Positions 6,100 to 47,256 of a stretch of 64,000 bases of DNA are shown in pieces. Within the stretch, counting starts at the first letter, position 1. Each line of letters starts with the position of its first letter. The DNA lies in NCBI GenBank assembly GCA_043807135.1, contig JAZDGF010000003.1, positions 72,621-136,620 on the forward strand, in the 5' to 3' direction. The notes below the pieces were generated by a model. That model worked only from the letters and a program-made list of their open reading frames with translations. It ran no database searches and was not told where the DNA came from. Position numbers and translations under genes: made by a program. The stretch comes from Candidatus Levyibacteriota bacterium. Lineage in GTDB: Bacteria; Patescibacteriota; Microgenomatia; Levybacterales; UBA12049.

Positions 6100-6803
6100 T
6101 AATTTATTTTCTCCTTTAAAAAAGTTTTTTCTAAAACTTCAATTGAAGCTTTCATGAAAAGTACTGTTTTACAATTTAAAACTTCATATGTATTTAACAT
6201 TTTTGCGCTTAAAATAGTTACACCTTTTAAATTTCTTCCTGATTTAAATATATTTTCATAACCATTAATTGTATCCGGTGTAACCAATAAAATTTTTCTG
6301 TTTTTCTCTTCAAACTTAAGGTTTTTAATTACATCTGCCATTTTTTTTGTTTTTGTTTCGATTTTTTCAAGGCCTGTCAAAACCATTATTTTTCCTTCTT
6401 GTTTTTTAACTGTAAGCGAAGAAAATAAAGCTGCTTTTTTCATTTTCTTTGGCATTTTCATTGAATAATCTCTTGGTCTTGGTCCAAAAACAACTCCTCC
6501 TCCAACCCAGATTGGAGCAGATTTTGCACCATGTCTTGCTCTTCCTGTTCCCTTTTGTCTCCAAGCCTTATGAGTAGTTGCATTTATTTCTCCTCTGGTT
6601 TTTGTAGAATGGGTTCCTTTTCTTTGATTTGCAAGATATACTCTTACGGCTTGCGCCAAGAGTGTTTTGTTTACTTTTGTATCAAAAATCTCTTTAGGAA
6701 GATTTATTTTTTCTATAATTTTTCCTTTTAGATCATATACGTCCATTTTCAAACCAGTTGTTTTTTTAACTTCTTTTTTAACTATAGTTTTTACTTTAGG
6801 CAT
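6099..6803 (-). CDS. rplD: 50S ribosomal protein L4
   Basis: The 234-aa L4-like protein lies between L3 and L23. Confidence 0.88.
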
Positions 6804-7593
6804 TTTCCTCCTTCACTTCTTCTTTTTTTTCTTTAACCTCTTCTTTTATTTCTGCTACTTCTTTAACTTGTGTTTTTTCTTCAGTATCTTTTGGTTTTTC
6901 AACACTTACTTCTGTTTTTACTTCTTCTTCAGCAATTTCTCTATATAATGGGACAAAGTTTTTGTTTTTACCCACCTTTTTAATCATAAGTAATGATTTT
7001 TTTACGCCTGGAACAAGTCCTCTAAGTAAAATTGTTCCGTCTTCTTTTATTTCAATTACTTCTAAATTTTTAACGGTTACTTGCTCATGTCCCATGCGCC
7101 CTGCCATTTTTTTACCTTTATACACTCTCCCTGGTGTAGTTGTTTGACCAATAGATCCGGGAGCTCTCTCCCTATCAGATTGACCGTGGGTTCTTGGACC
7201 ACCTTTAAAGTGGTATCTCTTAACTACTCCTGCAAATCCTTTTCCTTTAGAAATTCCAACCACATCAACTATGTCTCCTGGTTCAAGCAATTCCGAAACA
7301 TTAATTTCATAACCAGGTTCAATTTCCGGAATATCCGTAAGTCTAATTTCTCTAAAAAAACGGGGTGTTTCTTTTAACCCCGCTTTATCACTGTGCCCTT
7401 TTAATGGCTTGTTTGTTTTTTTCTTTGTTCCAAATCCAAGCTGAATTGCATTGTATCCGTCTTTTTCTGCTGTTTTTACTTGAGATACTCTATTTCCTAA
7501 AGAAGTTACGACAGTAAGCGGAATCCTTTTCCCATCTTCTAAAAAACCTTGTGTCTGATAATCTTTCTTGCCAATAAATCCAGTTATATTCAT
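6796..7593 (-). CDS. rplC: 50S ribosomal protein L3 with a Lys/Glu-rich C-terminal tail
   Basis: The 265-aa protein has an L3 core (GKGFAGVVKRYHFKGGPRTHGQS) plus an [28 protein letters not shown] tail. Confidence 0.9.
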   Translation of the reverse strand: MNITGFIGKKDYQTQGFLEDGKRIPLTVVTSLGNRVSQVKTAEKDGYNAIQLGFGTKKKTNKPLKGHSDKAGLKETPRFFREIRLTDIPEIEPGYEINVSELLEPGDIVDVVGISKGKGFAGVVKRYHFKGGPRTHGQSDRERAPGSIGQTTTPGRVYKGKKMAGRMGHEQVTVKNLEVIEIKEDGTILLRGLVPGVKKSLLMIKKVGKNKNFVPLYREIAEEEVKTEVSVEKPKDTEEKTQVKEVAEIKEEVKEKKEEVKEENA

Positions 7594-7618
7594 ATCTATT
7601 CCAGGGATGGTTCAAACA

Positions 7619-7644
7619 ACAAAAAAAGCGGCTCCCTAAGCCGC
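7619..7644 (-). terminator. Intrinsic terminator/attenuator hairpin GCGGCU-UAGGG-AGCCGC followed by U7, about 25 nt upstream of the rplC ATG
   Basis: Plus strand 7628-7644 reads gcggctccctaagccgc, a 6-bp GC stem, preceded by A7 at 7621-7627. On the minus strand this is a hairpin followed by UUUUUUU. Confidence 0.6.
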
Positions 7645-7720
7645 ATCTTCTTTCGAAGCTAAAGCTATACTCAGGTAGTCAATCTCACATTTTTTATTAT
7701 AACCATGTAAAACTGGGATT

Positions 7721-7749
7721 ATTATATATGGAAACGGGGCTAAATGCAA
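7721..7749 (-). promoter_or_regulatory. Sigma70-like promoter TTGCAT-17nt-TATAAT inside the rpsJ-rplC intergenic region
   Basis: Minus strand reads TTGCATttagccccgtttccataTATAAT. The -35 element is at plus 7744-7749 and the -10 at 7721-7726, with a 17-nt spacer. Confidence 0.45.
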
Positions 7750-7833
7750 GTAATTTAAAACTAAAATTTAAAAAATATAATTTTAATTTCTTATTTTTTT
7801 TGGCAGGAATTGGTTTACTTATGCACTCCTTCA

Positions 7834-8142
7834 TTAGGTTCTTATCTCAATATTCACGCCTGCGGGAAGTTCCAGATGAGTTAAGCTATCAATGGTTTTT
7901 TCAGTAGGAGACATAATATCAATTAATCTTTTGTGTGTTTTTATCTGAAAATGATCTCTTGCGTTTTTATCTATAAAAGGGGACCTGTTTACCGCATAGA
8001 CTGTTCTTTTGCTTGGAAGAGGTATTGGACCCACGACTTTGGCACCGGTCCTAATGGCCGTATCTAATATCTGTTGACACGTAGAGTCAATTACTCTAGC
8101 ATCGTAGCTTTTTAAACGTACTCTTATTCTTCCTTTTGGCAT
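7834..8142 (-). CDS. rpsJ: 30S ribosomal protein S10
   Basis: The 102-aa protein begins MPKGRIRVRLKSYDARVID, an S10 signature. Confidence 0.93.
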   Translation of the reverse strand: MPKGRIRVRLKSYDARVIDSTCQQILDTAIRTGAKVVGPIPLPSKRTVYAVNRSPFIDKNARDHFQIKTHKRLIDIMSPTEKTIDSLTHLELPAGVNIEIRT

Positions 8143-8159
8143 TGTAGCAAATTGCGGAA

Positions 8160-9341
8160 TTAAGCAATTATTTTAGTAATTGCTCCTGCTCCAACTGTTT
8201 TTCCACCCTCTCGGATAGCAAATCTTAGTCCTTCCTCTAGGGCAATTGGGGAAATAAGCTTTGCAGTGATCTTGGTATTGTCTCCTGGCATTACCATTTC
8301 TACTCCTTTTGGTAATGTAGCTTCTCCTGTAACATCGGTTGTTCTGATGTAAAATTGTGGCCTATAGCCATTAAAAAATGGTGTATGCCTTCCGCCTTCT
8401 TCTTTTGTAAGTACATAAATCTCTGCTTCAAACTCTTTATGAGGAGTGATAGATCCCGGTTTTGCAATAACCTGACCACGCTCAACATCATCTTTTTCAA
8501 TTCCGCGAAGTAGAAGTCCAACATTATCTCCTGCTTGACCATCATCAAGTTGCTTTCTAAACATTTCAACGCCTGTTACTACAGTTGACTTAGTATCTCT
8601 AATTCCAACAATTTCTACTGTTTCGTTTACCTTAACCTTTCCTCTCTCAATTCTTCCTGTAACAACTGTTCCTCTTCCTTTAATAGAAAAAACATCTTCA
8701 ACAGGCATAAGGAATGGTTTATCAACTTCTCTTTTGGGTGTAGGAATATATTCATCAACCTTATCCATTAAGTCTAGTATTGATTTTTCTGCATCCGCAT
8801 CGCCTTCCAAGGCTTTAAGAGCTGATCCTCTAATAATTGACACTTTGTCTCCTGGATACTTATATTTTGTAAGAAGTTCTCTTACTTCCATTTCAACTAA
8901 GTCCAATAGTTCTTCATCTTGAACCATGTCACATTTATTAAGGAAAACTACGATTGCAGGAACTCCAACTTGATAAGCTAAGAGAATGTGTTCTCTTGTT
9001 TGAGGCATTGGGCCGTCTGGAGCAGAAACTACTAAAATAGCTCCGTCCATTTGAGCGGCACCGGTAATCATATTTTTTATGTAATCTGCGTGTCCTGGAG
9101 CATCAATATGGGCATAGTGTCTTTTTTCTGTTTCATATTCAATGTGAGAAATATTAATCGTTACTCCTCTTGCTTTTTCTTCAGGAGCATTATCAATATC
9201 TTCATATTTCATTGCTTTTCCTGAGCCTTTTTTGGATAAAATAGTAGCAATAGCTGCGGTTAGCGTGGTTTTACCATGATCTACGTGGCCAATGGTTCCG
9301 ATATTTACGTGTGGTTTTGTTCTCTGAAATGTATCTGCCAT
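8160..9341 (-). CDS. tuf: Elongation factor Tu
   Basis: The 393-aa protein carries [18 protein letters not shown] and NKCD G-motifs, and EF-Tu domains 2 and 3. Confidence 0.97.
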
Positions 9342-9349
9342 ATTTGATC

Positions 9350-9381
9350 AAAAAAAATAACCTCTTTATTCTCTAAAGGTT
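9350..9381 (-). promoter_or_regulatory. Leader stem-loop (7 bp) plus U8 ending 8 nt before the tuf ATG
   Basis: Minus strand reads AACCUUU-agagaauaa-AGAGGUU-a-UUUUUUUU-gaucaaau-AUG. Plus-strand arms lie at 9359-9365 and 9375-9381, with A8 at 9350-9357. Confidence 0.45.
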
Positions 9382-9387
9382 AAAGAT

Positions 9388-9416
9388 AATATACAATATT
9401 TTTCAAAATTCGTCAA
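9388..9416 (-). promoter_or_regulatory. Sigma70-like promoter TTGACG-17nt-TATATT upstream of tuf
   Basis: Minus strand reads TTGACGaattttgaaaaatattgTATATT. The -10 is about 7 nt before the leader stem-loop. Confidence 0.4.
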
Positions 9417-9424
9417 GAGGGAAG

Positions 9425-9541
9425 TTAATATCTATTAGACAAAATAAACAATAAAATAGCTATAGCAATTCCAAAACTTACAATGCTAAATCCGATTGTA
9501 AGCCATTTAAAAAAATGATAATAATTAAACTTTTTTTCCAT
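9425..9541 (-). CDS. Possible 38-aa hydrophobic small protein; not in the ORF track because it is under 60 aa
   Basis: ATG...TAA encodes MEKKFNYYHFFKWLTIGFSIVSFGIAIAILLFILSNRY, with one predicted TM helix. Confidence 0.25.
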   Translation of the reverse strand: MEKKFNYYHFFKWLTIGFSIVSFGIAIAILLFILSNRY

Positions 9542-9571
9542 AGTTTAATATTCTTGAATTATATCTAAAGA

Positions 9572-9838
9572 TTAATCAGAAATTGGATTATCTACGAAAT
9601 ATCTTGTAAGCTTAATGTTTTTTCTTAATCCAGACGCTTTTATTTTTCTAAAAACCAACGGAACAAAAACTATTAAAAAAGTAAATACTCCGAAAACAAA
9701 AGCTATTAAAAGAGCAAATGGGACTGATCCTTGAATTACCCAAACAGCAAAGTAAATCCAGGCAAAAGAGGATATTTGCAATATAAAAATTGCAAATAAA
9801 GCAAGTGCTCCCGCAACTAATAGTGCGTAATAGATCAT
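9572..9838 (-). CDS. Small integral membrane protein (2 TM), hypothetical
   Basis: The 88-aa protein has two long hydrophobic segments and a basic C-terminus. Confidence 0.5.
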   Translation of the reverse strand: MIYYALLVAGALALFAIFILQISSFAWIYFAVWVIQGSVPFALLIAFVFGVFTFLIVFVPLVFRKIKASGLRKNIKLTRYFVDNPISD

Positions 9839-9856
9839 ATTATTTCTCTAATTAAG

Positions 9857-9879
9857 AAAAAAGACCGCTTAGCGGTCTT
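9857..9879 (-). terminator. Rho-independent terminator downstream of maf
   Basis: Plus strand reads aaaaAAGACCGCttaGCGGTCTTaaa, a perfect 8-bp stem with a 3-nt loop. On the minus strand the hairpin is followed by UUUU(UU). Confidence 0.6.
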
Positions 9880-9949
9880 AAATTTACAGCTCAAAGCCAT
9901 GTTAAATCTTTCGTAATACATAAATCAATTAGACAAAGAGATACGGAAA

Positions 9950-10537
9950 CTATTTCCAATGACTACTTATATTAATACCAAATTCTTGTAGTGTTTTGCA
10001 AACAGCAAAAATTGGAAGACCTACTACATTAAAAAAATCTCCTTCTACTTTTTCAATAAATACCCCCGCTTTATCTTGAATCCCGTATGCTCCTGCCTTA
10101 TCCATTAGCTTACCTGTTTTTACATATACTTCTATTTCTTCCTTTGTAAGTTTTTTAAAATAAACTTTAGAAATAACTGATCTGGTTACGGACTTTTTTG
10201 TTTTAGTATCTAGAACAGTAAAACCGGTAATAACTGTATGCTTTCTACCAGATAGTTTTTGCAAAATCTCACTCGCATTCTTTTCAGAAGTTGGTTTCCC
10301 AATAATTTCTTTGTTTTGAACAACAATTGAATCAGCAGCAATTACAATTGCATTTTTATATTTTTTTAATATAGCATTTGCTTTTTGTCTGGATAATTTC
10401 TCAGCAAGTTTTTGAGGATTTTTTTCAACTATCAATTTTTCATCAATATTACTTACAACAACCTTAAATTTTAAGCCTATACTCTCTAGGAGCTGTTTTC
10501 TTCTTGGTGATCTTGATGCAAGTATTATTCTTTTCAT
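9950..10537 (-). CDS. maf: Maf-like nucleoside triphosphate pyrophosphatase / septum formation protein
   Basis: The 195-aa protein begins MKRIILASRSPRRKQLL and ends ...AGAYGIQDKAGVFIEKVEGDFFNVVGLP, Maf family motifs. Confidence 0.85.
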   Translation of the reverse strand: MKRIILASRSPRRKQLLESIGLKFKVVVSNIDEKLIVEKNPQKLAEKLSRQKANAILKKYKNAIVIAADSIVVQNKEIIGKPTSEKNASEILQKLSGRKHTVITGFTVLDTKTKKSVTRSVISKVYFKKLTKEEIEVYVKTGKLMDKAGAYGIQDKAGVFIEKVEGDFFNVVGLPIFAVCKTLQEFGINISSHWK

Positions 10538-10607
10538 TTAAAAGATCTTTTATTGAAGTTTTGAAAAGTCAACGATAACGATAAGTTTTATATGTTCTTT
10601 AAAAAAC

Positions 10608-12716
10608 CTATTCAACGCGTCCAGTAAAAGTAGACTTTGCAAGCATTTGTGAAACAATATTTTGTGGAACTTCTTCATAATGAGAAGGTTCCATATAATA
10701 ACTTGCTCTACCTTGTGACATAGAACGAAGTATTGTTGCATAACCTGATAATTCTGCCAGTGGTACTGTTGCTAAAATTATCGTTGCTTTTCCTCTTTCT
10801 TCAGTTCCCATAATTTGTGCTCTTTTTGAAGAAAGATCTCCAATAATATCTCCCATAAATTCACCTGGAGTTGTAACCTCAACCTTCATAATTGGTTCTA
10901 CAAGAGAAAGCTCTGCTTTTCTACAAGCTGTTTGAAGGGCCTGGCTTGCAGCAATCTTAAAAGCAACATCAGATGAATCAACATCATGAAAAGATCCATC
11001 ATAAACAGTTACACTCATATCAACTATTGGGTAACCAAGTAAAATTCCGTTCTCCATTGTTTCTTTAACGCCTTTTTCAATAGAAGTGATAAACTCAGCA
11101 GGAATTGCTCCTCCTTTAATTGCATTAACAAATTCATATCCTTCCCCTCTTGTTTTTGGCTCAACTCTAAGAAAACAGTGTCCATATTGTCCGCGTCCTC
11201 CGGATTGTCTTATATACTTTCCTTCTCCTTCTGCCGTGTTTTTAATAGTTTCTTTGTATGCAACTTGAGGAGCACCAACATTAGCCATAACATTAAACTC
11301 TCTTTTCATTCGATCAACCATAATTTCAAGCTGTAATTCTCCCATTCCTGAAATAATAGTTTGCCCTGTTTCATGGTTTGTTTTAATACTAAAAGTTGGG
11401 TCTTCTTCAGATAATCTTTTTAAAGCAAAACCGAGCTTTTCCTGATCTACTTTTGTTTTTGGCTCAATTGCCAAAGATATAACCGGCTCCGGGAAGGTAA
11501 TTTGTTCAAGAACAATAGGACTTTTTTCTTCGCAAAGTGTATCCCCTGTTCCCGTATCTTTAAGACCAACTAAGGCAACAATTTCCCCTGCATATGCTTC
11601 CTTAACTTCTTCTCTGTGATTTGCATGCATTAAAAGAATTCTTCCTATTCTTTCCCGCTTGTTTTTATTTGTGTTATAAATATATGAACCTGCTGCAGCT
11701 TTTCCAGAATAGACTCTAAAGTAGGTTAATTTTCCAACGTGAGGATCAATCTGAATCTTAAAAGCAAGCCCTGCAAAAGGTTCTTCAAAATCAGGCTTTC
11801 TTTCTTCTTCTTTTTCTGTTTTTGGATTAATCCCTTTAACTGCTCCAACATCCAAAGGCGATGGAAGATAGTCAATTACCGCATCAAGTAACGGTTGAAC
11901 TCCTTTGTTTCTTAAAGATGAACCTGCATAAATAGGAACCAGCTTATATGCAATAACCGCTCTTCTAAGTCCTGCTTTAAGTTCTTCTACAGATAATTCT
12001 TCGCCGTTTAAGTATTTTTCCATAAGAGCGTCATCATTTTCTGCTATTTTTTCAATTAACTTGTGTCTATATTCTTCAACTTGTTCTTTTAATTCTTCTG
12101 GAATTTCATCTGAAACTTCAAACTTTGCACCTAGTTGATCAGATCCCCAAATAAATGCTTTTTTAGTTAACAGATCAACTGTTCCTATAAAGCTTGATTC
12201 TACGCCGATTGGAAGCACCATAATTGCCGGATTTGCACCAAGCCTATTTTCAATAGATCTTATTGTTGCTAAAAAGTCCGCACCAAGTTTATCCATTTTG
12301 TTTACAAAGCAAATTCTTGGAACATTGTATTTATCTGCTTGTCTCCAGACTGTTTCAGACTGAGACTGAACACCTTCTTCAGCATCTAAAACTGTAATGC
12401 CTCCGTCTAATACACGCAAAGATCTTTCAACCTCTGCTGTAAAATCAACGTGTCCGGGAGTATCAATAATATTTATCCTGTGATCCTTCCAAAAAGCGGT
12501 AGTTGCAGCAGAAACAATGGTAATACCACGCTCTTTTTCCTGAACCATCCAGTCCATTTGTGTATTTCCTTCATCAATATCTCCAATCTTATACGTTCTT
12601 CCCGTATAAAAAAGAATACGCTCGGTTGTCGTGGTTTTACCCGCGTCAATATGCGCAATAATTCCAATGTTCCTAATTTTATCTAGTGTATAATCTTTTT
12701 TTGTTGGTTCTACCAT
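10608..12716 (-). CDS. fusA: Elongation factor G
   Basis: The 702-aa protein carries [20 protein letters not shown] and NKMD G-motifs, and EF-G domains IV and V. Confidence 0.97.
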
Positions 12717-12732
12717 AGTTTAAATTTAGTCA

Positions 12733-12760
12733 AAAAAAACTTCCCCCTTCTAAAGGAAGC
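12733..12760 (-). promoter_or_regulatory. Terminator-like leader hairpin plus U8 ending about 16 nt before the fusA ATG
   Basis: Minus strand reads CUUCCUUU-agaa-AGGGGGAAG-UUUUUUUU. The stem has 5 Watson-Crick and 3 G-U pairs. Confidence 0.45.
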
Positions 12761-12902
12761 TATGCGTAGTATAGCATAAATTAACGGTTAATTACTATTT
12801 TCCATCTCTTTAAAAATGGATAGCTTTACGAGCACACCTTGTTCTTGGAAAACCATCGCTAATCTTTGATCAAATTGCTGTTCAATTTCTTGATAATATT
12901 AA

Positions 12903-13376
12903 TTAAAATCTAAAGTGGCTAAATGCACGGTTTGCCTCGGCCATTCTGTGAGCCGTATCTCTTTTCTTAATAGCTGCTCCTTGGTTTTCTACGGCATCTT
13001 TAAGTTCTACTGCCAGTTTTTCAGCAAAGGTATGATATTCTTTATTTGATCTTCCCCTTGCAGCCTCAATTATCCACCGCATGGATAAAGAAATTCTTCT
13101 ATCTCCTCTTACATCCATTGGAATTTGGTAAGAAGCTCCTCCGATTCTTTTAGCTTTTACTTCTTGCCTTGGACCAACATTTTGAATTGCTTTTTCAAAA
13201 GTCTCCAGGGGATTTATTCCACCTTTTTCAAGAAGCTCAAAAGCTTTGTATAAATTTTTCTCGGCAATAGTTTTTTTACCATCTTTCATTAATTTATTAA
13301 TGAATTTGGCAACCAGAAAGTTATTATAAATTTTATCTGCCGATATTTTTCTTTTTTCTGTTTTTTTATGTCTCAT
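12903..13376 (-). CDS. rpsG: 30S ribosomal protein S7
   Basis: The 157-aa S7 signature is present (..KKREEV.R.A.AN.AF..). Confidence 0.92.
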   Translation of the reverse strand: MRHKKTEKRKISADKIYNNFLVAKFINKLMKDGKKTIAEKNLYKAFELLEKGGINPLETFEKAIQNVGPRQEVKAKRIGGASYQIPMDVRGDRRISLSMRWIIEAARGRSNKEYHTFAEKLAVELKDAVENQGAAIKKRDTAHRMAEANRAFSHFRF

Positions 13377-13382
13377 ATTTTT

Positions 13383-13856
13383 TTACTCAACTGGTGCTAC
13401 CGATGGCGGTGTAGGCACTGAAGCAGACGCTGAAACTCCTGCTTTTCCTCCTCCACTCTTGGTTCCATATTTACTTCGTGATGTTTTTCTTCCTTCAACT
13501 CCTGTCAAATCAAATTTTCCCCTAACTATATGATATTTTACACCCGGTAGATCCTTAACCCTTCCTCCTCTTACTAGAACAATTCCATGCTCTGAAAGAG
13601 AATGTCCGATTCCCTGAATATATGCTGTAACTTCCATTTTATTAGAAAGTTTTACTCTTGCAACTTTTCTTAGAGCAGAATTTGGCTTTTTAGGAGTCAT
13701 TGTTTTAACCAATGTTACAACTCCTCTTTTTTGTGGAGCAATAAGGTTTTTGTATTCTCTATCTTTTGCATTAAAAAGACGACGTAAAGCATTTGAACGC
13801 GTCTTTTTAACTTTTTTAACTCTTCCCCTTTTTGATAATTGTGAAATTGTTGGCAT
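13383..13856 (-). CDS. rpsL: 30S ribosomal protein S12 with an Ala/Ser/Pro-rich C-terminal extension
   Basis: The 157-aa protein begins MPTISQL, contains [10 protein letters not shown], and ends with a roughly 30-aa tail [24 protein letters not shown]. Confidence 0.9.
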
Positions 13857-21149: not shown

Positions 21150-21905
21150 TTAAGCTCCTCTTTCTCTTACGGCAATTCTATATTTACAATAGTCACAATC
21201 TTCTCCGGACTTGGGTATTTTATCGTCTCTTAAACAGTTAATTGCATCATTAATAGTTTTTTCAACCCAAGAATCATTTCCTTTATATGGCAAAATCTTA
21301 ATATCAAATTCAAGCTTTGCATCAAAAGCTTTTTTATCGGTAATACCATTACAATATACAAAATATCCTGTGTCTGACACTTTGTAGCCGTTTTTTCTAA
21401 ACAACCATTGATAAATTTCCATCTGTCTTTTATACCCATCTTGCCATTCCTTATCTAAAGTTACCTCTTCTTCTTTAGAAGTTGCTTTGTAATCAACAAT
21501 AATATATTCCCCATTTGGATTTATCCAAACATCATCTATTCCTCCTGTGACAATAACGTTTGAGTGATCAATTCTAGCAGTTATTCCCCTCCTCATAGCA
21601 TCTCTCCACTCATCTATTTTTTCATGATCTAAAGGAATTGCATCAACTCCATATGTTGTCATTAAAGGATGAGCTGTTTTTTTAGCTCTATGAATATCAA
21701 ATTCTTTTTTTAATAACTTATCTACTGCGGAATTTAGAGAAAACGGATAACCTGGAGGCTGACCTACACCAAGACGACGATCTAAGTAAAAGCAACGTGG
21801 ACAACTAATAAATAAATCTATTTTACTTCTGCTTAAGCGAAATAAATCAGTTGTGCTGGGGTTATATAAATATTTTTTCCGGTTAGGATTATAATATTGA
21901 GACAT
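21150..21905 (-). CDS. PD-(D/E)XK-superfamily nuclease with a four-Cys (putative Fe-S) signature, Cas4/RecB-nuclease-domain-like
   Basis: The 251-aa protein has N-terminal CPRC, C-terminal CDYCKY, and a GIDDVW...IIVDYK motif matching D..(D/E)xK. Confidence 0.5.
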   Translation of the reverse strand: MSQYYNPNRKKYLYNPSTTDLFRLSRSKIDLFISCPRCFYLDRRLGVGQPPGYPFSLNSAVDKLLKKEFDIHRAKKTAHPLMTTYGVDAIPLDHEKIDEWRDAMRRGITARIDHSNVIVTGGIDDVWINPNGEYIIVDYKATSKEEEVTLDKEWQDGYKRQMEIYQWLFRKNGYKVSDTGYFVYCNGITDKKAFDAKLEFDIKILPYKGNDSWVEKTINDAINCLRDDKIPKSGEDCDYCKYRIAVRERGA

Positions 21906-36990: not shown

Positions 36991-38643
36991 TCAAACCTCA
37001 ACCACAACCGGAAGAACCAGAGGATGTTTCTTAAAGTTTTTATAAATATATGCTTCGGAAATCTTTCCTGTTAATCTTCTAAACCTTATCCAATCTTTAA
37101 CTGCTCCCCTTCTTTCCTGAAAAGCTCTTCTTAACTCTTGATTTAAATTTCTGCTAAGAGTTTTTGATTCATCGGATGAAAATCCACGAGCAATAATATT
37201 TGGATTTTCTACAGGCTGACCTGTTGCAGAATCAATTTCTACCATTACAATAACTATTCCTTCTTGAGCAATCTTTTGTCTGTCGCGAAGAACAAATTGT
37301 TCAACTTCTTCCCCTGAAATCTGATCCACATATACGCTCTTGAGCTGAATTTTTCTTCCTAATCTTCCTTTTCCATTTGAAAATATTATTTCTTGTCCAT
37401 CCTCGGGAAGTAAAACATTCTCATCCGCAAGTCCATGAAGCTTAGCAAGATTTTTATATGCAACCATTTGCCTAAAAGTTCCACCAATAGGAACGGCCAT
37501 TTTGGGATTAGTTAAAGCCATCATTAAAAATATTTCCTGCGAGGAACCGTGGCCTGATACATGAAAACTATCACTTACTTCAGAATAAATCGGTCTTGCA
37601 CCGGTTCTTGAAATTGCATCAATTACCGCGTTTACAGAAATTTCATTGCCTGGGATCGGATCTGCTGAAAAAACTACCACGTCCTTTGAACCTAATTTAA
37701 CAAATCTATGTTCGTTATTGGCAACTCTTGTCATGGAAGCATTCTCCTGTCCTTGACTCCCTGCAATCACTAAGCAAAGATCATGATCTTTATAATTTTT
37801 AATCTGCTCAGGAGTTATAACAAAGTTTCTTGGAAAGTTCATGTATCCCAATCTTTCCGCAATATCTTTTGCCCTAATTAAAGACCTTCCTACGAAACAA
37901 ATTTTCCTACCTGTTCTTTGCGCAGCTATTGCTGCTTGGTTTAACCTTGAAATATTTGAACTGTAAGTTGTTAGTATAAATTTTCCTTCACACTTTCGCA
38001 TTTCCATTTCAATATTTTCTTCAAGTTTTCTTTCCGAAGGAGTATGACCTTCTTTCTCAGCACCTAATGCATCTGACATTAAACATAAAATTCCCTCGGA
38101 CGCACACTTTGCTATTTTGGCAAAATTAGTTGTTTTTTTGTCGAAAGGAGTTAAGTCAAATTTATAATCGCTACCGTGGTAAAAATTACCAGCTTGAGTT
38201 TTTATAAAAAGATTTGAGGCATCAGGTATAGAATGAGTTACTCTTATAAAAGAAATTTTAAATCCTCCTAAAGAGATATCTCCACCGTCAAAATCAACCG
38301 GTTTTACTCTATTTAGAGATTTAAATTCTTCAAGCTTCCCATTAGCAAAAGCAGCAGTTAAAGGACTTCCAAAAATAGGGAACAGGGGAAGCTGCGGGAG
38401 AATAAACGGTAAGGCTCCAATATGATCTTCGTGACCATGAGATAAAACCATTCCGACAATCTTTTTCTTAGTTTGCAATAAGTAAGAAATGTCAGGAAGT
38501 AATAAATCTACGCCAAGCACAGTCTCATCTGCAAAACCAATTCCACAGTCAACTATTAATATTTCTGTTGCGGATTCGTAGATATACATGTTCTTTGTTA
38601 CATCTCCTGATCCACCTAATGGTATAAATTTTATTTCATTCAT
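36991..38643 (-). CDS. rnj: Ribonuclease J
   Basis: The 550-aa protein has a metallo-beta-lactamase HGHEDH motif, a beta-CASP domain and a C-terminal domain. Confidence 0.9.
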   Translation of the reverse strand: MNEIKFIPLGGSGDVTKNMYIYESATEILIVDCGIGFADETVLGVDLLLPDISYLLQTKKKIVGMVLSHGHEDHIGALPFILPQLPLFPIFGSPLTAAFANGKLEEFKSLNRVKPVDFDGGDISLGGFKISFIRVTHSIPDASNLFIKTQAGNFYHGSDYKFDLTPFDKKTTNFAKIAKCASEGILCLMSDALGAEKEGHTPSERKLEENIEMEMRKCEGKFILTTYSSNISRLNQAAIAAQRTGRKICFVGRSLIRAKDIAERLGYMNFPRNFVITPEQIKNYKDHDLCLVIAGSQGQENASMTRVANNEHRFVKLGSKDVVVFSADPIPGNEISVNAVIDAISRTGARPIYSEVSDSFHVSGHGSSQEIFLMMALTNPKMAVPIGGTFRQMVAYKNLAKLHGLADENVLLPEDGQEIIFSNGKGRLGRKIQLKSVYVDQISGEEVEQFVLRDRQKIAQEGIVIVMVEIDSATGQPVENPNIIARGFSSDESKTLSRNLNQELRRAFQERRGAVKDWIRFRRLTGKISEAYIYKNFKKHPLVLPVVVEV

Positions 38644-43478: not shown

Positions 43479-44930
43479 TTAGTTATGGCATATTAACATA
43501 TCGCCTATAGTAAAGTCAAGGAGAGGGGATATTACAATTCCTGCCTCTTGCCCTTTTTCTACTTTTGAGGTTGAATTTTTGCCAATTCTTACTGAGTTTA
43601 CATTACTTTCTCCAACAACTTCTTTATCTCTCATTAGCCTCACTCGGTCACCTTTGGCAACTCTTCCTTCCAAAACTGAAATGCCAAGTGCTTTTCCTTT
43701 CTCAAAAGGAAATGAGGCAAGTATTTTTGCTCTACCGTAAATCTGTTCCTGCATAGCAAGTTTTTTACCCTCTAGTAAATCTTTAACTTCTTCTATTATT
43801 TCGTAAATTAAGTTGTAATTTCTAAGTAAAACTTTTTCTGCTTCGGCAAGCTTTAAAACATCTTGTTTTATTTTTATATTAAATCCTAAAATTACCGCGC
43901 CAGTTGATTTGGCAAAAAGAATATCTGACGTTTCAATATCACCTGTTTTTGAAGAAAGAATTTTAAGCTCACTAGGAAGTGAACTTATCAAAGCTTCAAG
44001 CGATCCATAAGTATCGGCACAAATAATAAAAGAGGGCATTCCCTCTTGAGATTTTTGAACCTCTTCTTCTTGCAATTCAGAGCTTCCCAGTTCTTTTTTT
44101 TCTTTAATTTTTGAATTAACAATTTCACCTATCTTAGGAGCATTTTCAAAACCTAAAATTTCTACTGCTTCTCCTACGGTTGCTTCTTTTAGTTGTTTTC
44201 CTTTGTCATTTGTTAAACTTCTTACTCTTGCTTTTATACCTCCTGCAAAAATATCACTTCTTACCTTTATTACTCCGTTTTTAATAACAACCGTTGCTTT
44301 TGGACCTGCTTTTGGATCAAGCTTTGACTCTATAACTATCGCTTCAAGCTCTTTTTTTGAAGAATAAGTAAATTTATCCTGATTTACGTCATAAATAAGA
44401 AGAATTAAATCCAAAAGTTCTTTTACGTTATGATTTGACTTTGCAGAAACTTCTATTGAAGGCACGTTTCCACCATAGCTTTCAAGTATTATCTCCTCTT
44501 TTAAAAACTGTTTTTTCACCTTTTCTACACTTATATCCGGAAGGTCAGCTTTTGTTAAAACAACAATAAAAGGAGTTTTTGAAGCTTTTAATAATTCTAT
44601 GCTTTCTTTTGTCTGAGGCTTAATTCCGTCATTTAAAGCAACAATTAAAAGTGCAATATCTGCTGCCCTAAGTCCTCTTCCCCGCATTTGAGAAAAAGCT
44701 TCATGGCCGGGTGTATCTATAAAAGTAATTTTTCGCAGTTTTTCCTCGTGCTTTATTTCTATTTCCGATGCTCCAATTTTCTGAGTAATTCCTCCATGTT
44801 CACGCTCAGCAATGTTTGTTTTTCTAATTGCATCTAAAAGTGTGGTTTTACCGTGATCAACATGCCCTAATACAGCAATTACTGGAGGGTATAAATTTTC
44901 TTTACTATGTTTTTTATTTTTAACATCCAT
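43479..44930 (-). CDS. infB: Translation initiation factor IF-2, compact form beginning at the G domain
   Basis: The 483-aa protein contains [25 protein letters not shown] and TKAD, plus IF-2 C-terminal domains. Confidence 0.9.
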   Translation of the reverse strand: MDVKNKKHSKENLYPPVIAVLGHVDHGKTTLLDAIRKTNIAEREHGGITQKIGASEIEIKHEEKLRKITFIDTPGHEAFSQMRGRGLRAADIALLIVALNDGIKPQTKESIELLKASKTPFIVVLTKADLPDISVEKVKKQFLKEEIILESYGGNVPSIEVSAKSNHNVKELLDLILLIYDVNQDKFTYSSKKELEAIVIESKLDPKAGPKATVVIKNGVIKVRSDIFAGGIKARVRSLTNDKGKQLKEATVGEAVEILGFENAPKIGEIVNSKIKEKKELGSSELQEEEVQKSQEGMPSFIICADTYGSLEALISSLPSELKILSSKTGDIETSDILFAKSTGAVILGFNIKIKQDVLKLAEAEKVLLRNYNLIYEIIEEVKDLLEGKKLAMQEQIYGRAKILASFPFEKGKALGISVLEGRVAKGDRVRLMRDKEVVGESNVNSVRIGKNSTSKVEKGQEAGIVISPLLDFTIGDMLICHN

Positions 44931-44985: not shown

Positions 44986-46173
44986 TCAGGCTTTATCTTT
45001 TATTTCTTCTGTTTTATTTTTTTTAACTTTTTTAACAGTCTTCTTTTTTGCAACTGTTTTTTTTTCTACCTTTTCTTTCTTAACTTTCTTAACTTTTTCA
45101 TCTTTTTTCACTGTTTTAGCTTTCTTTTTTTCCTTTTTTTCAGGCTTATCGTCTTTTTCTACATCTTTTTCTTCAACCTTTTCTTCTGTCTCCATTCCTT
45201 CAATTTCTATTCTATATCCTGATAATTTTGAGGCAAGTCTTACATTTTGACCTTCTCTGCCGATTGCCAAAGAAAGCTCATCTTCTGCAACTGACACATG
45301 AGCAATTTTTTCTTTTTCATCAATTTCTACTTTAAGATTTTTTGCAGGAGACAAAGCTTGAGCAATATAGCTTTTTGGGTTTTCCTGCCATTGAATAATA
45401 TCTATTTTTTCAAGACCACCAAATTCCTGAATAACTGCCTGAACTCTCACTCCTTTTTGACCAACACAGCTTCCAACAGGATCAATTCCTGACTGAGTGG
45501 AAAATACTGCAATCTTACTTCTTGCACCTGCTTCTCTTGCAATTTCCTTAATTTCAACATTTCCCTGAGCTACTTCAGGAACTTCTCTTTTAAAAAGCCC
45601 TTCCAAGAGTCCGGGGGCAGATCTTGAAACAATAATCTCTTCTCCTTTTAACCCTTCTCTTATCTCTGCTAAATAAACAGCTAGTCTTTGATTTAAATAG
45701 TATTTTTCATTTTGAATTTGATCTTGAGAAGGCATTATTGCTTCAGTTTTTCCAATATCAATAATTATATTTGGTCCAGCAAATCTTAATACCATTCCGT
45801 TTATAATCGATCCTATTTTTAGTCTGTAATCGGTAATTATCGCTTCTTTTTCTTTTTCTCTAATTTTTTGAAGGATTACCTGTTTTGCGGTTTGAGCTGC
45901 AATTCTACCAAAGCCCGGAGGGGTTACGTCTTTTTTGTTATGAAAAATCTTCGCTTCTCCTGTTTGAGAATCAAGACTCGCAGTAAATTCTGTAACTTCT
46001 ATTCCTGGGTGGTCTTTTCTATATGCTGCAACAATAGCATTTCTAACAGTTTCCATAACAACCTCGGGGTCAATTCCCCTTTCGGTTGAAACCTGATTTA
46101 GTGCTAATGCAAATTCGCTTCTTTGTATTGCCGGCATATTTTTTAAAAAAATGGCGGGCTTAATCCCCACCAT
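44986..46173 (-). CDS. nusA: Transcription termination/antitermination factor NusA with a Lys-rich tail
   Basis: The 395-aa protein has an N-terminal domain, an S1 domain, KH1 and KH2 domains, and a K/E-rich C-terminus. Confidence 0.9.
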   Translation of the reverse strand: MVGIKPAIFLKNMPAIQRSEFALALNQVSTERGIDPEVVMETVRNAIVAAYRKDHPGIEVTEFTASLDSQTGEAKIFHNKKDVTPPGFGRIAAQTAKQVILQKIREKEKEAIITDYRLKIGSIINGMVLRFAGPNIIIDIGKTEAIMPSQDQIQNEKYYLNQRLAVYLAEIREGLKGEEIIVSRSAPGLLEGLFKREVPEVAQGNVEIKEIAREAGARSKIAVFSTQSGIDPVGSCVGQKGVRVQAVIQEFGGLEKIDIIQWQENPKSYIAQALSPAKNLKVEIDEKEKIAHVSVAEDELSLAIGREGQNVRLASKLSGYRIEIEGMETEEKVEEKDVEKDDKPEKKEKKKAKTVKKDEKVKKVKKEKVEKKTVAKKKTVKKVKKNKTEEIKDKA

Positions 46174-46197
46174 CTCAAATGCTCCTTAATTGAATTC

Positions 46198-46226
46198 ATT
46201 TTAGCAGATTTAACCTCTTCAGTCAA
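46198..46226 (-). promoter_or_regulatory. Candidate nusA promoter TTGACT-17nt-TAAAAT, with AAGGAG Shine-Dalgarno 8 nt before the ATG
   Basis: Minus strand reads TTGACTgaagaggttaaatctgcTAAAATgaattcaattAAGGAGcatttgagATG. Confidence 0.4.
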
Positions 46227-46347
46227 CCAAAAACAACCCAGTGGATTACCTCTTTTTAAAAACACCTCTTTATATAAGAGATGTTATTTGCTAATATTGA
46301 CCTACTACTTAGACTAGCTCATTTGGAATTTTAGGGGGTGAGTAAAT

Positions 46348-46596
46348 TTGAAAAAAGACTTAATCGGAAAAGTAATTCATTATTACGACAAAATCGGAGT
46401 TGCCGTAATAAAATTGGATAAAGGGCTTAAAACCGGGGATAAAATAAAATTTGTAAAGGGCGACCACGAGTTTGAACAAATAGCCGATTCAATACAACTT
46501 GAGCACGAACAAATCTCAGAGGGTAAAAAAGGAGATGAAATTGCTTTGAAAGTTGATAAAGAGGCTGGCTCGGGAACTTTAGTTTATATAGCCTAA
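46348..46596 (+). CDS. Small beta-barrel protein resembling a translation-factor domain-2-like fold; TTG start with a strong Shine-Dalgarno
   Basis: The 82-aa protein contains GKVIHYYDKIGVAVIKLDKGLKTGDKIKF. AGGGGGTGA lies 10 nt upstream of the TTG. Confidence 0.45.
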   Translation: MKKDLIGKVIHYYDKIGVAVIKLDKGLKTGDKIKFVKGDHEFEQIADSIQLEHEQISEGKKGDEIALKVDKEAGSGTLVYIA

Positions 46597-46746
46597 TACA
46601 TATTTATATATTTATGCCACACAATGTGCAATGAACGACGCAAACTTGTCGTACAACCTCTAATTTGCTACGCGTCGAGGCTAAGTATATTACTCTAAGC
46701 TATATCTTCTTAGTGATTTTTGCCTTTGGATTAAAAATTTCCAGCC

Positions 46747-47256
46747 TTAAAAAGTATTCTGCACTACTCTTATTTCAACTAATTGACTTGAAGCTTGTTT
46801 TGTAATTTCTATACCTATTTCTTGATGTTCATCTGCTCCTGAAAGCTTATTTAAAACATTTCCGTTTGTACTTGTTGAAACAAAAGAAACAGCATTCATT
46901 CCTATTTCTCTAATTCTTTCTTTATACCAATTTGTTATTTGTCCTACATCATCATAACTTTGCAAATTAATTGCGTTTCCTGAGTTACTTAGTTGCTGTG
47001 AATTAGGATAAACCCAAGTATTGCTTATTCCCTGTACCTGTTTTACTTCACTTGTAAAAGTAGGAGTATTTTCAATTATTGTATTTGTTTGAATCGGTAT
47101 CTTTGTTGGAATAGGTGTAGGTGTTTTTTCTTCTAAAACAGGTGTTGGCGTTAATATTTTTGGCGCAAATGTTTTTTCGTCTTGTCTTAAAACAGAACTT
47201 TTAGAAAAAAGAATAAACAAGACTAATAAGATAAGAAGAATTTTTAAACTATTCAC
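46747..47256 (-). CDS. Secreted hypothetical protein with a signal peptide and Pro/Thr linker
   Basis: The 169-aa protein begins MNSLKILLILLVLFILFS and has a PT-rich linker. It is the last gene of the co-directional cluster. Confidence 0.5.
   Translation of the reverse strand: MNSLKILLILLVLFILFSKSSVLRQDEKTFAPKILTPTPVLEEKTPTPIPTKIPIQTNTIIENTPTFTSEVKQVQGISNTWVYPNSQQLSNSGNAINLQSYDDVGQITNWYKERIREIGMNAVSFVSTSTNGNVLNKLSGADEHQEIGIEITKQASSQLVEIRVVQNTF

Follow-up and report, generated by a model that had tools for sequence, protein, structure and literature searches.

The window analyzed here, a stretch of 64,000 nucleotides (nt) from a Candidatus Levyibacteriota genome, contains on its minus strand the gene tuf, coding for elongation factor Tu (EF-Tu). 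The leader of about 40 nt between the promoter and the start codon of this gene is predicted, from comparison with relatives, to be a conserved RNA module that is part of the tuf-rpsJ mRNA and acts in cis. It comprises a hairpin that would begin at the first transcribed nucleotides, a run of eight U residues, and a short linker that lacks a Shine-Dalgarno (SD) sequence. The interpretation that we favor, with a probability of roughly 0.4, is that the leader combines a 5'-terminal protective hairpin with an unstructured, U-rich ribosome landing site.

The initial annotation, made from this DNA alone, had described the hexamers TTGACG and TATATT with a 17-nt spacing, a stem-loop of 7 base pairs (bp), U8 and the sequence gaucaaauAUG, and every one of these elements is present on the minus strand (Table 1). 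In the 5' to 3' direction, the stop codon of a 38-amino acid (aa) open reading frame (ORF) at 9425 is followed by the -35 region, the spacer of 17 nt, the -10 region, a second spacer of 6 nt (atcttt), the stem, a single A (9358), the U8 tract, the linker and the ATG at 9341. The stem includes one G-U pair among its 7 bp and can be extended by an optional eighth pair, U9382-A9358; the folding energy is -4.0 kcal/mol for 7 bp and -5.3 kcal/mol for 8 bp. The purine run AGAGG is located in the 3' arm.

On its own, the element of the window is not beyond chance. The fold of a 56-nt segment has a z-score of -0.70 against shuffled sequences, single-sequence z-scores of the element range from -0.7 to -1.0, and promoter-like matches between 7000 and 14000 are fewer than expected by chance (13 observed, 21.2 in shuffled sequences). 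Single-sequence statistics, not significant for the window alone, were rejected as a means of deciding the question in a genome with 33% G+C; significance comes from the comparison with relatives, namely from promoter conservation and stem covariation. With Rfam covariance models, nothing anywhere in the window reached the gathering score and nothing relevant appeared at E<=5 in 7400-13000, and a description of a tuf hairpin-plus-U element was not found in the literature.

Two approaches were used to collect relatives. Contigs encoding EF-Tu with 88-97% identity to that of the window provided a protein-identity set of 10 lineages, and of the 50 loci retrieved by scanning metagenomes for the promoter pattern, about 30 lie immediately upstream of tuf. 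The final collection holds 30 distinct tuf leaders (EF-Tu identity 82-97%), of which 27 stem from the pattern-based scan and the first protein-identity set, and 3 from later protein-identity look-ups. A genome contig scan with EF-Tu was rejected as a source of relatives: given the excessive conservation of the protein, the 80 loci that it retrieved belonged to unrelated phyla (<=78% identity) and had unrelated leaders.

Similarity to the relatives starts exactly at the -35 region of tuf. The shared promoter pattern is (ga)CTCTTGACG, 13 variable nt, ATTGTATA(T/G)T, which for the protein-identity loci can also be written CTCTTGACG-N13-ATTGTATAKT; one relative from this set deviates (ATTGACG...TATTAT). 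The 17-nt spacer is constant in length and variable in sequence, and the genes upstream of tuf differ among the relatives (transporter of the major facilitator superfamily (MFS), small ORFs, MazG, others). Invariant hexamers, a spacer of fixed length with variable sequence and differing upstream genes together argue for a working promoter, and indicate that tuf has its own promoter of the sigma-70 type. Promoter hexamers, 17-nt spacing, hairpin and a U-rich tract directly after the hairpin are found together in 27 of the 30 distinct leaders, including all 10 protein-identity lineages. Three lineages are without the module and have a leaderless or short-leader tuf instead.

These exceptional lineages also help to place the transcription start. 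In the leaderless cases (L130/L099 and L134 in our numbering of contigs), only 7 or 6 nt separate this promoter from the ATG, whose A lies 7-8 nt past the -10 region. In L120/L107, the tuf leader has a length of 23 nt and no hairpin module. In nearly all leaders, position 6 after the -10 region is a pyrimidine and position 7 (or 8) a purine. Moreover, 8 of the 63 genes of the window have a -10 hexamer that ends 6-7 nt before the start codon, which suggests that leaderless mRNAs are common and that transcription starts at position 7-8 after the -10 region. From the leaderless tuf variants, the pyrimidine at -1 and purine at +1, and the 6-7-nt gap of the leaderless genes in the window, we infer the exact 5' end, and predict that tuf transcription starts at the first stem base, at A9381 or A9380. 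With this predicted start, a stem-loop and U8 at the beginning of the tuf transcript, as proposed in the initial annotation, are supported by promoter invariance, the purine at +1, the leaderless tuf genes of sister lineages and stem covariation. The leaderless-type starts in the window are at 21905, 21979, 32738, 35894, 47256, 55990, 58606 and 60515, with TATAAT, TACAAT or TACGAT as the -10 hexamer. Many EF-Tu matches are on contigs of about 1.85 kb, near the size that a tuf-rpsJ transcript should have; these were considered as possible transcripts and rejected, as the three that were fetched are ordinary DNA contigs with 99-478 nt upstream of the gene.

The hairpin is conserved in position and in pairing rather than in sequence. 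The first paired base is at position 5-9 after the -10 region (median 7, 23 tabulated leaders), with 0-2 predicted unpaired nucleotides in front of the stem. Eleven stem types can be distinguished (AACCUUU/AGAGGUU, AACCU/GGGUU, CCAUCA/UGAUGG, ACACCUU/AGGGUGU, GUCCUU/AAGGAC, UACCCU/AGGGUA, AUCCU../AGGAU, GCCUUAA/UUAAGGU, UUAACCU/AGGUUAA, GCCUUA/UGAGGC and AAACCUU/AGGGUUU). A CC...GG core is invariant among them, always with the C residues in the 5' arm. More generally, it is invariably the 3' arm that holds the G-rich purine runs (AGAGG, AAGG, AGGG, GGGGGAAG) and the 5' arm that holds the C/U runs, and the reverse never occurs. G-U pairs are frequent, and the length of the loop varies between 3 and 14 nt; it is 9 nt in the window, 10 nt in its closest relatives and 3-7 nt in other clades. 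Both features point to an RNA structure on the sense strand and not to a DNA operator, and a palindrome acting at the DNA level was rejected on these grounds.

Covariation was assessed on an alignment (A2) with arms anchored by hand on the CC/GG core and loops trimmed; a MAFFT alignment of the raw tuf leaders was discarded since it misaligned the 3' arms. As A2 was fitted to the structure, pair counts from it lean towards that structure, and its cells do not represent independent events. On A2, 79% of the cells are pairing, versus 65% in shuffles. Covariation reaches a score of 0.439 versus 0.160 in shuffles, none of 500 of which reach the observed value, and it is at most 0.142 when the partners are slid by 1-3 columns. 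Three pairs covary: the first is realized as AU (8), GC (3), UA (2), UG (2) and CG (1), the second as AU (12), UA (5), GC (1) and GU (1), and the third as UA (11), UG (4), AU (3) and CG (2). Immediately outside the predicted transcript, pairing in two columns drops from 95% and 80% to 55% and 30%, which is about the chance level. Each of the 24 local folds gave a z-score below zero (mean -1.9). Together, these comparative data argue that the tuf hairpin is a conserved RNA structure under selection, and thus a real leader element.

Two groups of relatives have modified leaders. In L095/L096, the leader has a length of 91 nt and two hairpins, a separate one at the 5' end and the hairpin-U unit further downstream. 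Upstream of the second hairpin, the sequence of the 3' arm is present once more (AAGGUUAA) and could pair with the 5' arm of this hairpin (UUAGCCUU); the duplicated arms may resemble a classical 1:2/2:3/3:4 attenuator, or may just be a by-product of duplication. One clade (L118 at about 1010-1060, L123, L101) has a GC-rich, hairpin-forming insertion of about 40 nt (..CCGCCUUCGCCC..GGGGCUUCGGCGAG..) between U7 and the tuf ATG, which may be a small mobile or repeat element.

The U tract is most regular in the clade closest to the window, where an uninterrupted run of U7-U9 abuts the stem. In other clades, runs of U5-U7 are at times interrupted or offset from the stem by 1-3 nt (about a third of the other leaders); examples with an interruption or an offset of 2-3 nt are AUUUAUUUU, GAAUUUUAUUUU and GUA-U7. 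Linkers consist of 63% U, 26% A and 11% G+C, and the U/A-rich tract adjoins the initiation region, whereas start regions of this genome in general are A-rich (44% A and 33% U). Runs of at least seven U within 30 nt of a start codon occur only upstream of tuf and fusA. On the sense strand of intergenic DNA, the window has only three runs of at least seven U, each after a hairpin (tuf, fusA, rplC). Hairpin-plus-U matches on the sense strand of intergenic DNA number four, all in the fusA-rplC stretch, where they are about 8 times as dense as in coding sense DNA; for the comparison of start codon regions with other intergenic positions suggested in the initial annotation, the whole 2.8 kb of intergenic DNA falls near start codons. 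Besides those of tuf, fusA and rplC, a fourth hairpin plus U close to a start codon is the terminator of maf, and its proximity to the start codon is explained simply by genome compaction.

In 14 of 24 leaders, 12-18 nt separate the stem base from the ATG; the overall range is 10-52 nt, with 49-52 nt in the insertion carriers L123 and L118. These distances bear on the AGAGG run, which the initial annotation had taken for a sequestered SD sequence. In the window, AGAGG is 19 nt from the ATG, outside the SD distance of about 4-10 nt, and an SD-like 4-mer at -18 to -4 is present in only 14 of the 63 genes of the window, mostly in internal genes of ribosomal protein operons. Together with the variable position of the stem base in the relatives, this speaks against the proposed role. 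Another pairing is specific to the window: GGUU together with U8-GA of the leader (9339-9360, minus strand) can pair with codons 5-9 of tuf (UCAGAGAA..AACC, 9312-9326), enclosing the AUG. A function for this pairing was rejected, since it depends on GGUU, which the other stem types lack, and is therefore not conserved.

According to the initial annotation, the hairpin-plus-U architecture recurs before fusA (12760-12732) and rplC (7644-7621). Hairpins and U runs are indeed present at both sites, and for fusA the parallel holds. The gene carries the same module as tuf, in this case with an extended -10 region and with 15 nt between U8 and the ATG (Table 1). In the relatives L109, L095 and L103, the -10 region of fusA is kept, and the hairpins have different stems followed by U5-U7. 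With -7.7 to -13.8 kcal/mol, tetraloops and U5-U8, the hairpins of fusA are terminator-grade. About 400 kb of Levybacteria loci were scanned for a -10 region that is followed after 4-8 nt by a hairpin with a U-rich tail and then by an ORF, and the matches were almost only tuf and fusA. We regard the module, on the basis of these comparisons, as a terminator-shaped hairpin-U unit starting at the predicted +1 that is common to both elongation factor genes of a lineage of the candidate phyla radiation (CPR) and that has no Rfam family.

For rplC, the parallel does not hold, as its structured leader has a length of about 120 nt (110-130 nt with the relatives included) and the hairpin, a GC-rich terminator, comes only after about 70 nt of it. 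The promoter elements TTGCAT and TATAAT are separated by 17 nt, the hairpin has a folding energy of -10.0 kcal/mol, and its stem covaries. An upstream segment, CUACCUGAG, is complementary to the loop and the upper 3' arm of this hairpin, and this long-range pairing covaries as well: 84.5% of the cells are paired, and the covariation score is 0.295 versus at most 0.084 with slid partners, in this case on a MAFFT alignment not fitted to the structure. The leader is found in L081, L085, L087, L089, L092, L096, L100, L103, L106, L108, L115, L116, L129, L132 and L141, the segment that pairs with the terminator being CUACnUnAG; distant relatives share GGAGGU, and the hairpin lies 3-35 nt before the ATG. 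The rplC leader is a candidate autoregulatory attenuator responding to a ribosomal protein (L4 or L3), which is absent from Rfam and looks undescribed.

As we picture the tuf leader, transcription from the gene's own promoter would start at the predicted adenosines, and the first nucleotides of the RNA would form the 5' arm of the hairpin, with 0-2 nt unpaired. The hairpin would then shield the 5' end of the very abundant tuf mRNA from pyrophosphate removal and subsequent attack by the 5'-exonuclease RNase J. The U-rich, G/C-poor stretch of about 15 nt between stem and AUG would keep the start region single-stranded for SD-independent ribosome binding, and a U run may be the linker with the least tendency to interfere with the pairing of the pyrimidine-rich 5' arm. 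The stabilizing and translational roles could coexist with a certain amount of co-transcriptional termination at the U run. The usual distance of 12-18 nt between stem base and AUG is about the length of mRNA that the 30S subunit covers upstream of a start codon.

We infer stabilization of the tuf mRNA and a role of the leader in translation from several features. Protection of the 5' end is favored because the stem is anchored at the predicted +1 in every stem type, because only 0-2 nt are left unpaired with the predicted start, and because RNase J is encoded in the window, as the initial annotation had claimed and as Pfam matches confirm (Table 1), so that an enzyme for 5'-end-dependent decay is available. 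RppH of Bacillus subtilis needs at least 2-3 unpaired 5' nucleotides (PMC3997798), and the 0-2 nt of tuf are below this. In organisms with RNase J, 5' hairpins and nearby ribosome binding stabilize mRNAs (PMC3997798). Two further observations count for protection: L095/L096, with the hairpin-U unit displaced, keep the 5' end paired by a separate hairpin, and the tuf stems are weak for terminators, with only 2-3 G-C pairs, a base formed by A-U pairs and loops of up to 10 nt.

The tuf leader shares some features with known leaders that stabilize mRNA or enhance translation. Examples of 5'-terminal stem-loop stabilizers are hp1 of Escherichia coli ompA and the aprE and ermC leaders of B. subtilis. 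The tuf leader is like these in that its hairpin is predicted to form the very 5' end of the primary transcript, leaving no more than 2 nt unpaired, with the ribosome-binding region close behind, in an organism that encodes RNase J. It differs in its much weaker stem, the U run that follows at once, and the lack of an SD sequence and of any sequence similarity. In the leader of phage T7 gene 10 (phi10), a stem-loop at +1 stabilizes the mRNA and is followed by an A/U-rich single-stranded enhancer in front of the start, an arrangement similar to that of tuf; however, the phage leader has a strong SD sequence and a GC-rich stem, and no homopolymeric U run abuts the stem. A/U-rich enhancers that depend on ribosomal protein S1 (for example U8 upstream of E. 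coli rnd; AU-rich enhancers, PMC2176067) resemble the tuf leader in the U-rich single-stranded tract just upstream of the initiation region. They act together with an SD sequence and a six-domain S1, whereas the tuf leader has no SD sequence. The idea of an S1-dependent enhancer, which the initial annotation had named along with an attenuator and a 5' stabilizer, is weakened because U runs are not general to the start regions of this genome, and because bS1 of the CPR is mostly of a short form with 3-4 domains (PMC9297842).

The last two points also weigh against a protective hairpin with a ribosome landing site, and they are not the only ones. In a 100-nt fold of the window sequence, the equilibrium probability of the 5' hairpin is only 0.14, due to the competing pairing with codons 5-9. 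Hairpin and U run stay coupled in L118 and L123, where they lie about 50 nt away from the AUG owing to the insertion of about 40 nt, and in fusA of L103, although the hairpin is not at the 5' end there; such coupling is the signature of an intrinsic terminator. The uninterrupted U7-U9 kept by the closest clade are not required for ribosome binding. Three lineages do without the module, and the 5' end of tuf is a predicted one.

Nearly as likely as the protective hairpin is a promoter-proximal attenuator, that is, a weak intrinsic terminator that would stop some polymerases about 30-35 nt after the start and thereby tune EF-Tu and elongation factor G (EF-G). The two explanations fit the data almost equally well, and they can coexist. 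The efficiency of the attenuator would follow the elongation rate (supply of UTP or of nucleoside triphosphates (NTP) in general) or NusA, NusG and cold-shock proteins. Leader attenuators include the E. coli S10 leader with L4, pyrBI, and the weak terminators of B. subtilis that depend on NusA or NusG. As in these, the tuf leader has a hairpin and then U7-U9 on the sense strand, between the promoter and the start of a gene of the translation apparatus, and weak stems with A-U base pairs at their base resemble the factor-dependent terminators. Hairpin and U run form one unit in every hairpin-bearing leader, including those in which the unit is apart from the AUG (L118, L123) or not 5'-terminal (L095, fusA of L103), and the clade of the window keeps the U run intact directly after the stem. 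The restriction of intergenic U runs to sites after hairpins, the terminator-grade fusA hairpins and the rplC leader, which shows that the lineage uses leader terminators, point in the same direction. Against this, the tuf hairpin starts at the predicted +1, a strictness that the model does not need, with no RNA upstream and no leader peptide, and a conserved alternative pairing that could act as antiterminator was not found in the leaders; regulation would then have to act in trans. A constitutive terminator before the most expressed gene would be wasteful, and in several clades the U run is interrupted or 2-3 nt off the stem.

The U8 tract of the window follows the stem after 0-1 nt, which is within the usual limits for canonical terminators (at least six U within 0-2 nt). 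The stem of the window has only 2 G-C pairs, and its -4.0 or -5.3 kcal/mol compare with -10.0 and -10.8 kcal/mol for the hairpins at 7644 and 9879; a terminator scan requiring at least 3 G-C pairs did not list it, and the loop of 9 nt exceeds the usual 3-8 nt. By a score of the d'Aubenton-Carafa type, the window element is borderline (-0.8) and 20 of 24 relatives are negative, that is, below the classical terminator threshold, while fusA hairpins score from 0 to +10 and control GC-rich terminators +10 and +40. The tuf element fails several defining features of canonical intrinsic terminators, as it does for SD-sequestering elements. A more specific version of attenuation, which we consider rather improbable, is that the tuf and fusA leaders are matched attenuators without antiterminator, with read-through set by polymerase speed (UTP/NTP, NusA, NusG, cold-shock proteins), and that the hairpin then caps the read-through mRNA against RNase J. 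If true, this would couple the synthesis of both elongation factors to nucleotide supply in a nucleotide-scavenging CPR bacterium.

The remaining explanations fare less well. The hairpin could be the terminator of the upstream transcription unit (the small genes for tuf, rpsL-rpsG for fusA), displaced past the next promoter owing to genome compaction. Neither in the window nor in any relative does a terminator stand between the co-directional upstream gene and the tuf promoter, there is likewise none between rpsG and the fusA promoter, and only 2.8 kb of the 64 kb are intergenic. Nevertheless, we consider this unlikely: the element is conserved while the upstream genes differ completely, read-through into tuf would do no harm, tuf transcripts would be stopped equally by a terminator that follows the promoter, and the pairing is not extended upstream of the predicted start, as read-through RNA would allow. 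Even less probable is a translational switch, in which the hairpin would control initiation by sequestering AGAGG or by alternating with the pairing of U8/GGUU with codons 5-9. The consistent placement of purine runs in the 3' arm and of C/U runs in the 5' arm and the predicted fold enclosing the AUG would fit such a switch; the distances from stem base or purine run to the AUG, the scarcity of SD-like motifs and the lack of GGUU in other stem types do not. Finally, a chance hairpin without function, by a T run in AT-rich intergenic DNA, could account for the modest z-scores in the window, and promoter-like hexamers are common in DNA with 33% G+C. This last explanation is refuted by the comparative data and has hardly any probability left: the element is present in 10 of 10 protein-identity lineages and 27 of 30 leaders, its 11 stem types differ by compensatory changes, no shuffle reaches the observed covariation, and all 24 folds have negative z-scores.

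To our knowledge, almost nothing is known about how genes are controlled in the CPR (Patescibacteria), which have few regulators, and there are no cultured Levybacteria. What the analysis provides is a strong housekeeping promoter, a calibrated rule for the transcription start (7-8 nt past the -10 region, leaderless genes being frequent) and a conserved, covarying leader RNA that is absent from Rfam. It also provides a concrete target for metatranscriptomics, with 5' ends expected at 9381 and 3' ends at about 9350, and a compact element for surrogate hosts. If the element attenuates transcription, it would be a minimal regulator without alternative structure; if it stabilizes the mRNA, it would be evidence that 5' decay of the RNase J type shapes CPR leaders.

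Table 1. Coordinates of the tuf leader, of the fusA and rplC leaders and of the RNase J gene in the window.
Feature	Position	Strand	Basis
-35 region of the tuf promoter, CTCTTGACG; hexamer TTGACG 9416-9411	9411..9419	minus	with the -10 region, 10/12 consensus match; invariant in protein-identity tuf loci
-10 region of the tuf promoter, ATTGTATATT; hexamer TATATT 9393-9388	9388..9397	minus	TATATT or TATAGT in relatives
Predicted transcription start of tuf, A at position 7-8 after the -10 region	9380..9381	minus	leaderless tuf variants; pyrimidine at -1 and purine at +1
Predicted 5'-terminal hairpin, AACCUUU (9381-9375), 9-nt loop, AGAGGUU (9365-9359)	9359..9381	minus	folding energy and comparison with relatives
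U8 tract directly 3' of the stem (one A, 9358, between)	9350..9357	minus	sequence reading; U7-U9 in closest clade
Linker gaucaaau, without SD sequence	9342..9349	minus	direct reading
tuf coding sequence	8160..9341	minus	ORF and translation; database identity
fusA leader: TGcTATACT extended -10 (12776-12768), 6 nt, hairpin 12760-12740, U8 12739-12732, 15 nt, ATG 12716	12717..12776	minus	fold -9.4 kcal/mol; relatives
rplC promoter and structured leader: TTGCAT 7749-7744, TATAAT 7726-7721, CUACCUGAG 7678-7670, hairpin 7644-7628, U7 7627-7621, ATG 7593	7594..7749	minus	conserved in >14 relatives
RNase J gene	36991..38643	minus	Pfam RNase_J_b_CASP 5.6e-40, RNase_J_C 4.4e-20

The tuf gene encodes an EF-Tu of 393 aa, which is 100% identical to the protein of a Candidatus Levyibacteriota metagenome-assembled genome; the nearest relatives are Levybacteria/Microgenomates, which belong to the CPR. 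The genes on the minus strand are arranged in the order rpoB, rpoC, rpsL, rpsG, fusA, maf, an 88-aa ORF, the 38-aa ORF, tuf, rpsJ, a gap of 240 nt, rplC, and rplD onward. Both small ORFs between maf and tuf are membrane-like. The classical str/S10 cluster is therefore split into the units rpsL-rpsG, fusA-maf, small membrane ORFs, tuf-rpsJ, and rplC onward (7594-13856 in the window; L083-L092). In relatives, different genes are inserted before tuf, namely an MFS transporter, MazG and small ORFs. The insertions between rpsJ and rplC are a GT2 glycosyltransferase, a 331-aa ORF and a LysM protein. Peculiarities typical of the CPR are found in 43479-44930, 13383-13856 and 6796-7593, namely a short IF-2 (483 aa), an S12 with a C-terminal extension of about 30 aa, and an L3 with a long acidic/lysine-rich C-terminal tail (265 aa).

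Two other hairpins with U runs were noted on the minus strand. The GC-rich canonical terminator 3' of maf (9861-9879, AAGACCGCUAAGCGGUCUU followed by UUUUCUU, -10.8 kcal/mol) lies only 22 nt before the 88-aa membrane ORF. At 46145-46173, a strong hairpin (AUGGUGGGGAUUAAGCCCGCCAU, -12.7 kcal/mol) followed by U7 overlaps the first called start codon of a 395-aa ORF (46173-44986), and a permissive Rfam search of 46050-46800 gave no convincing match. This ORF has a second ATG at about 46136, so that either codon may be the true start, and the hairpin may act as terminator or leader element.

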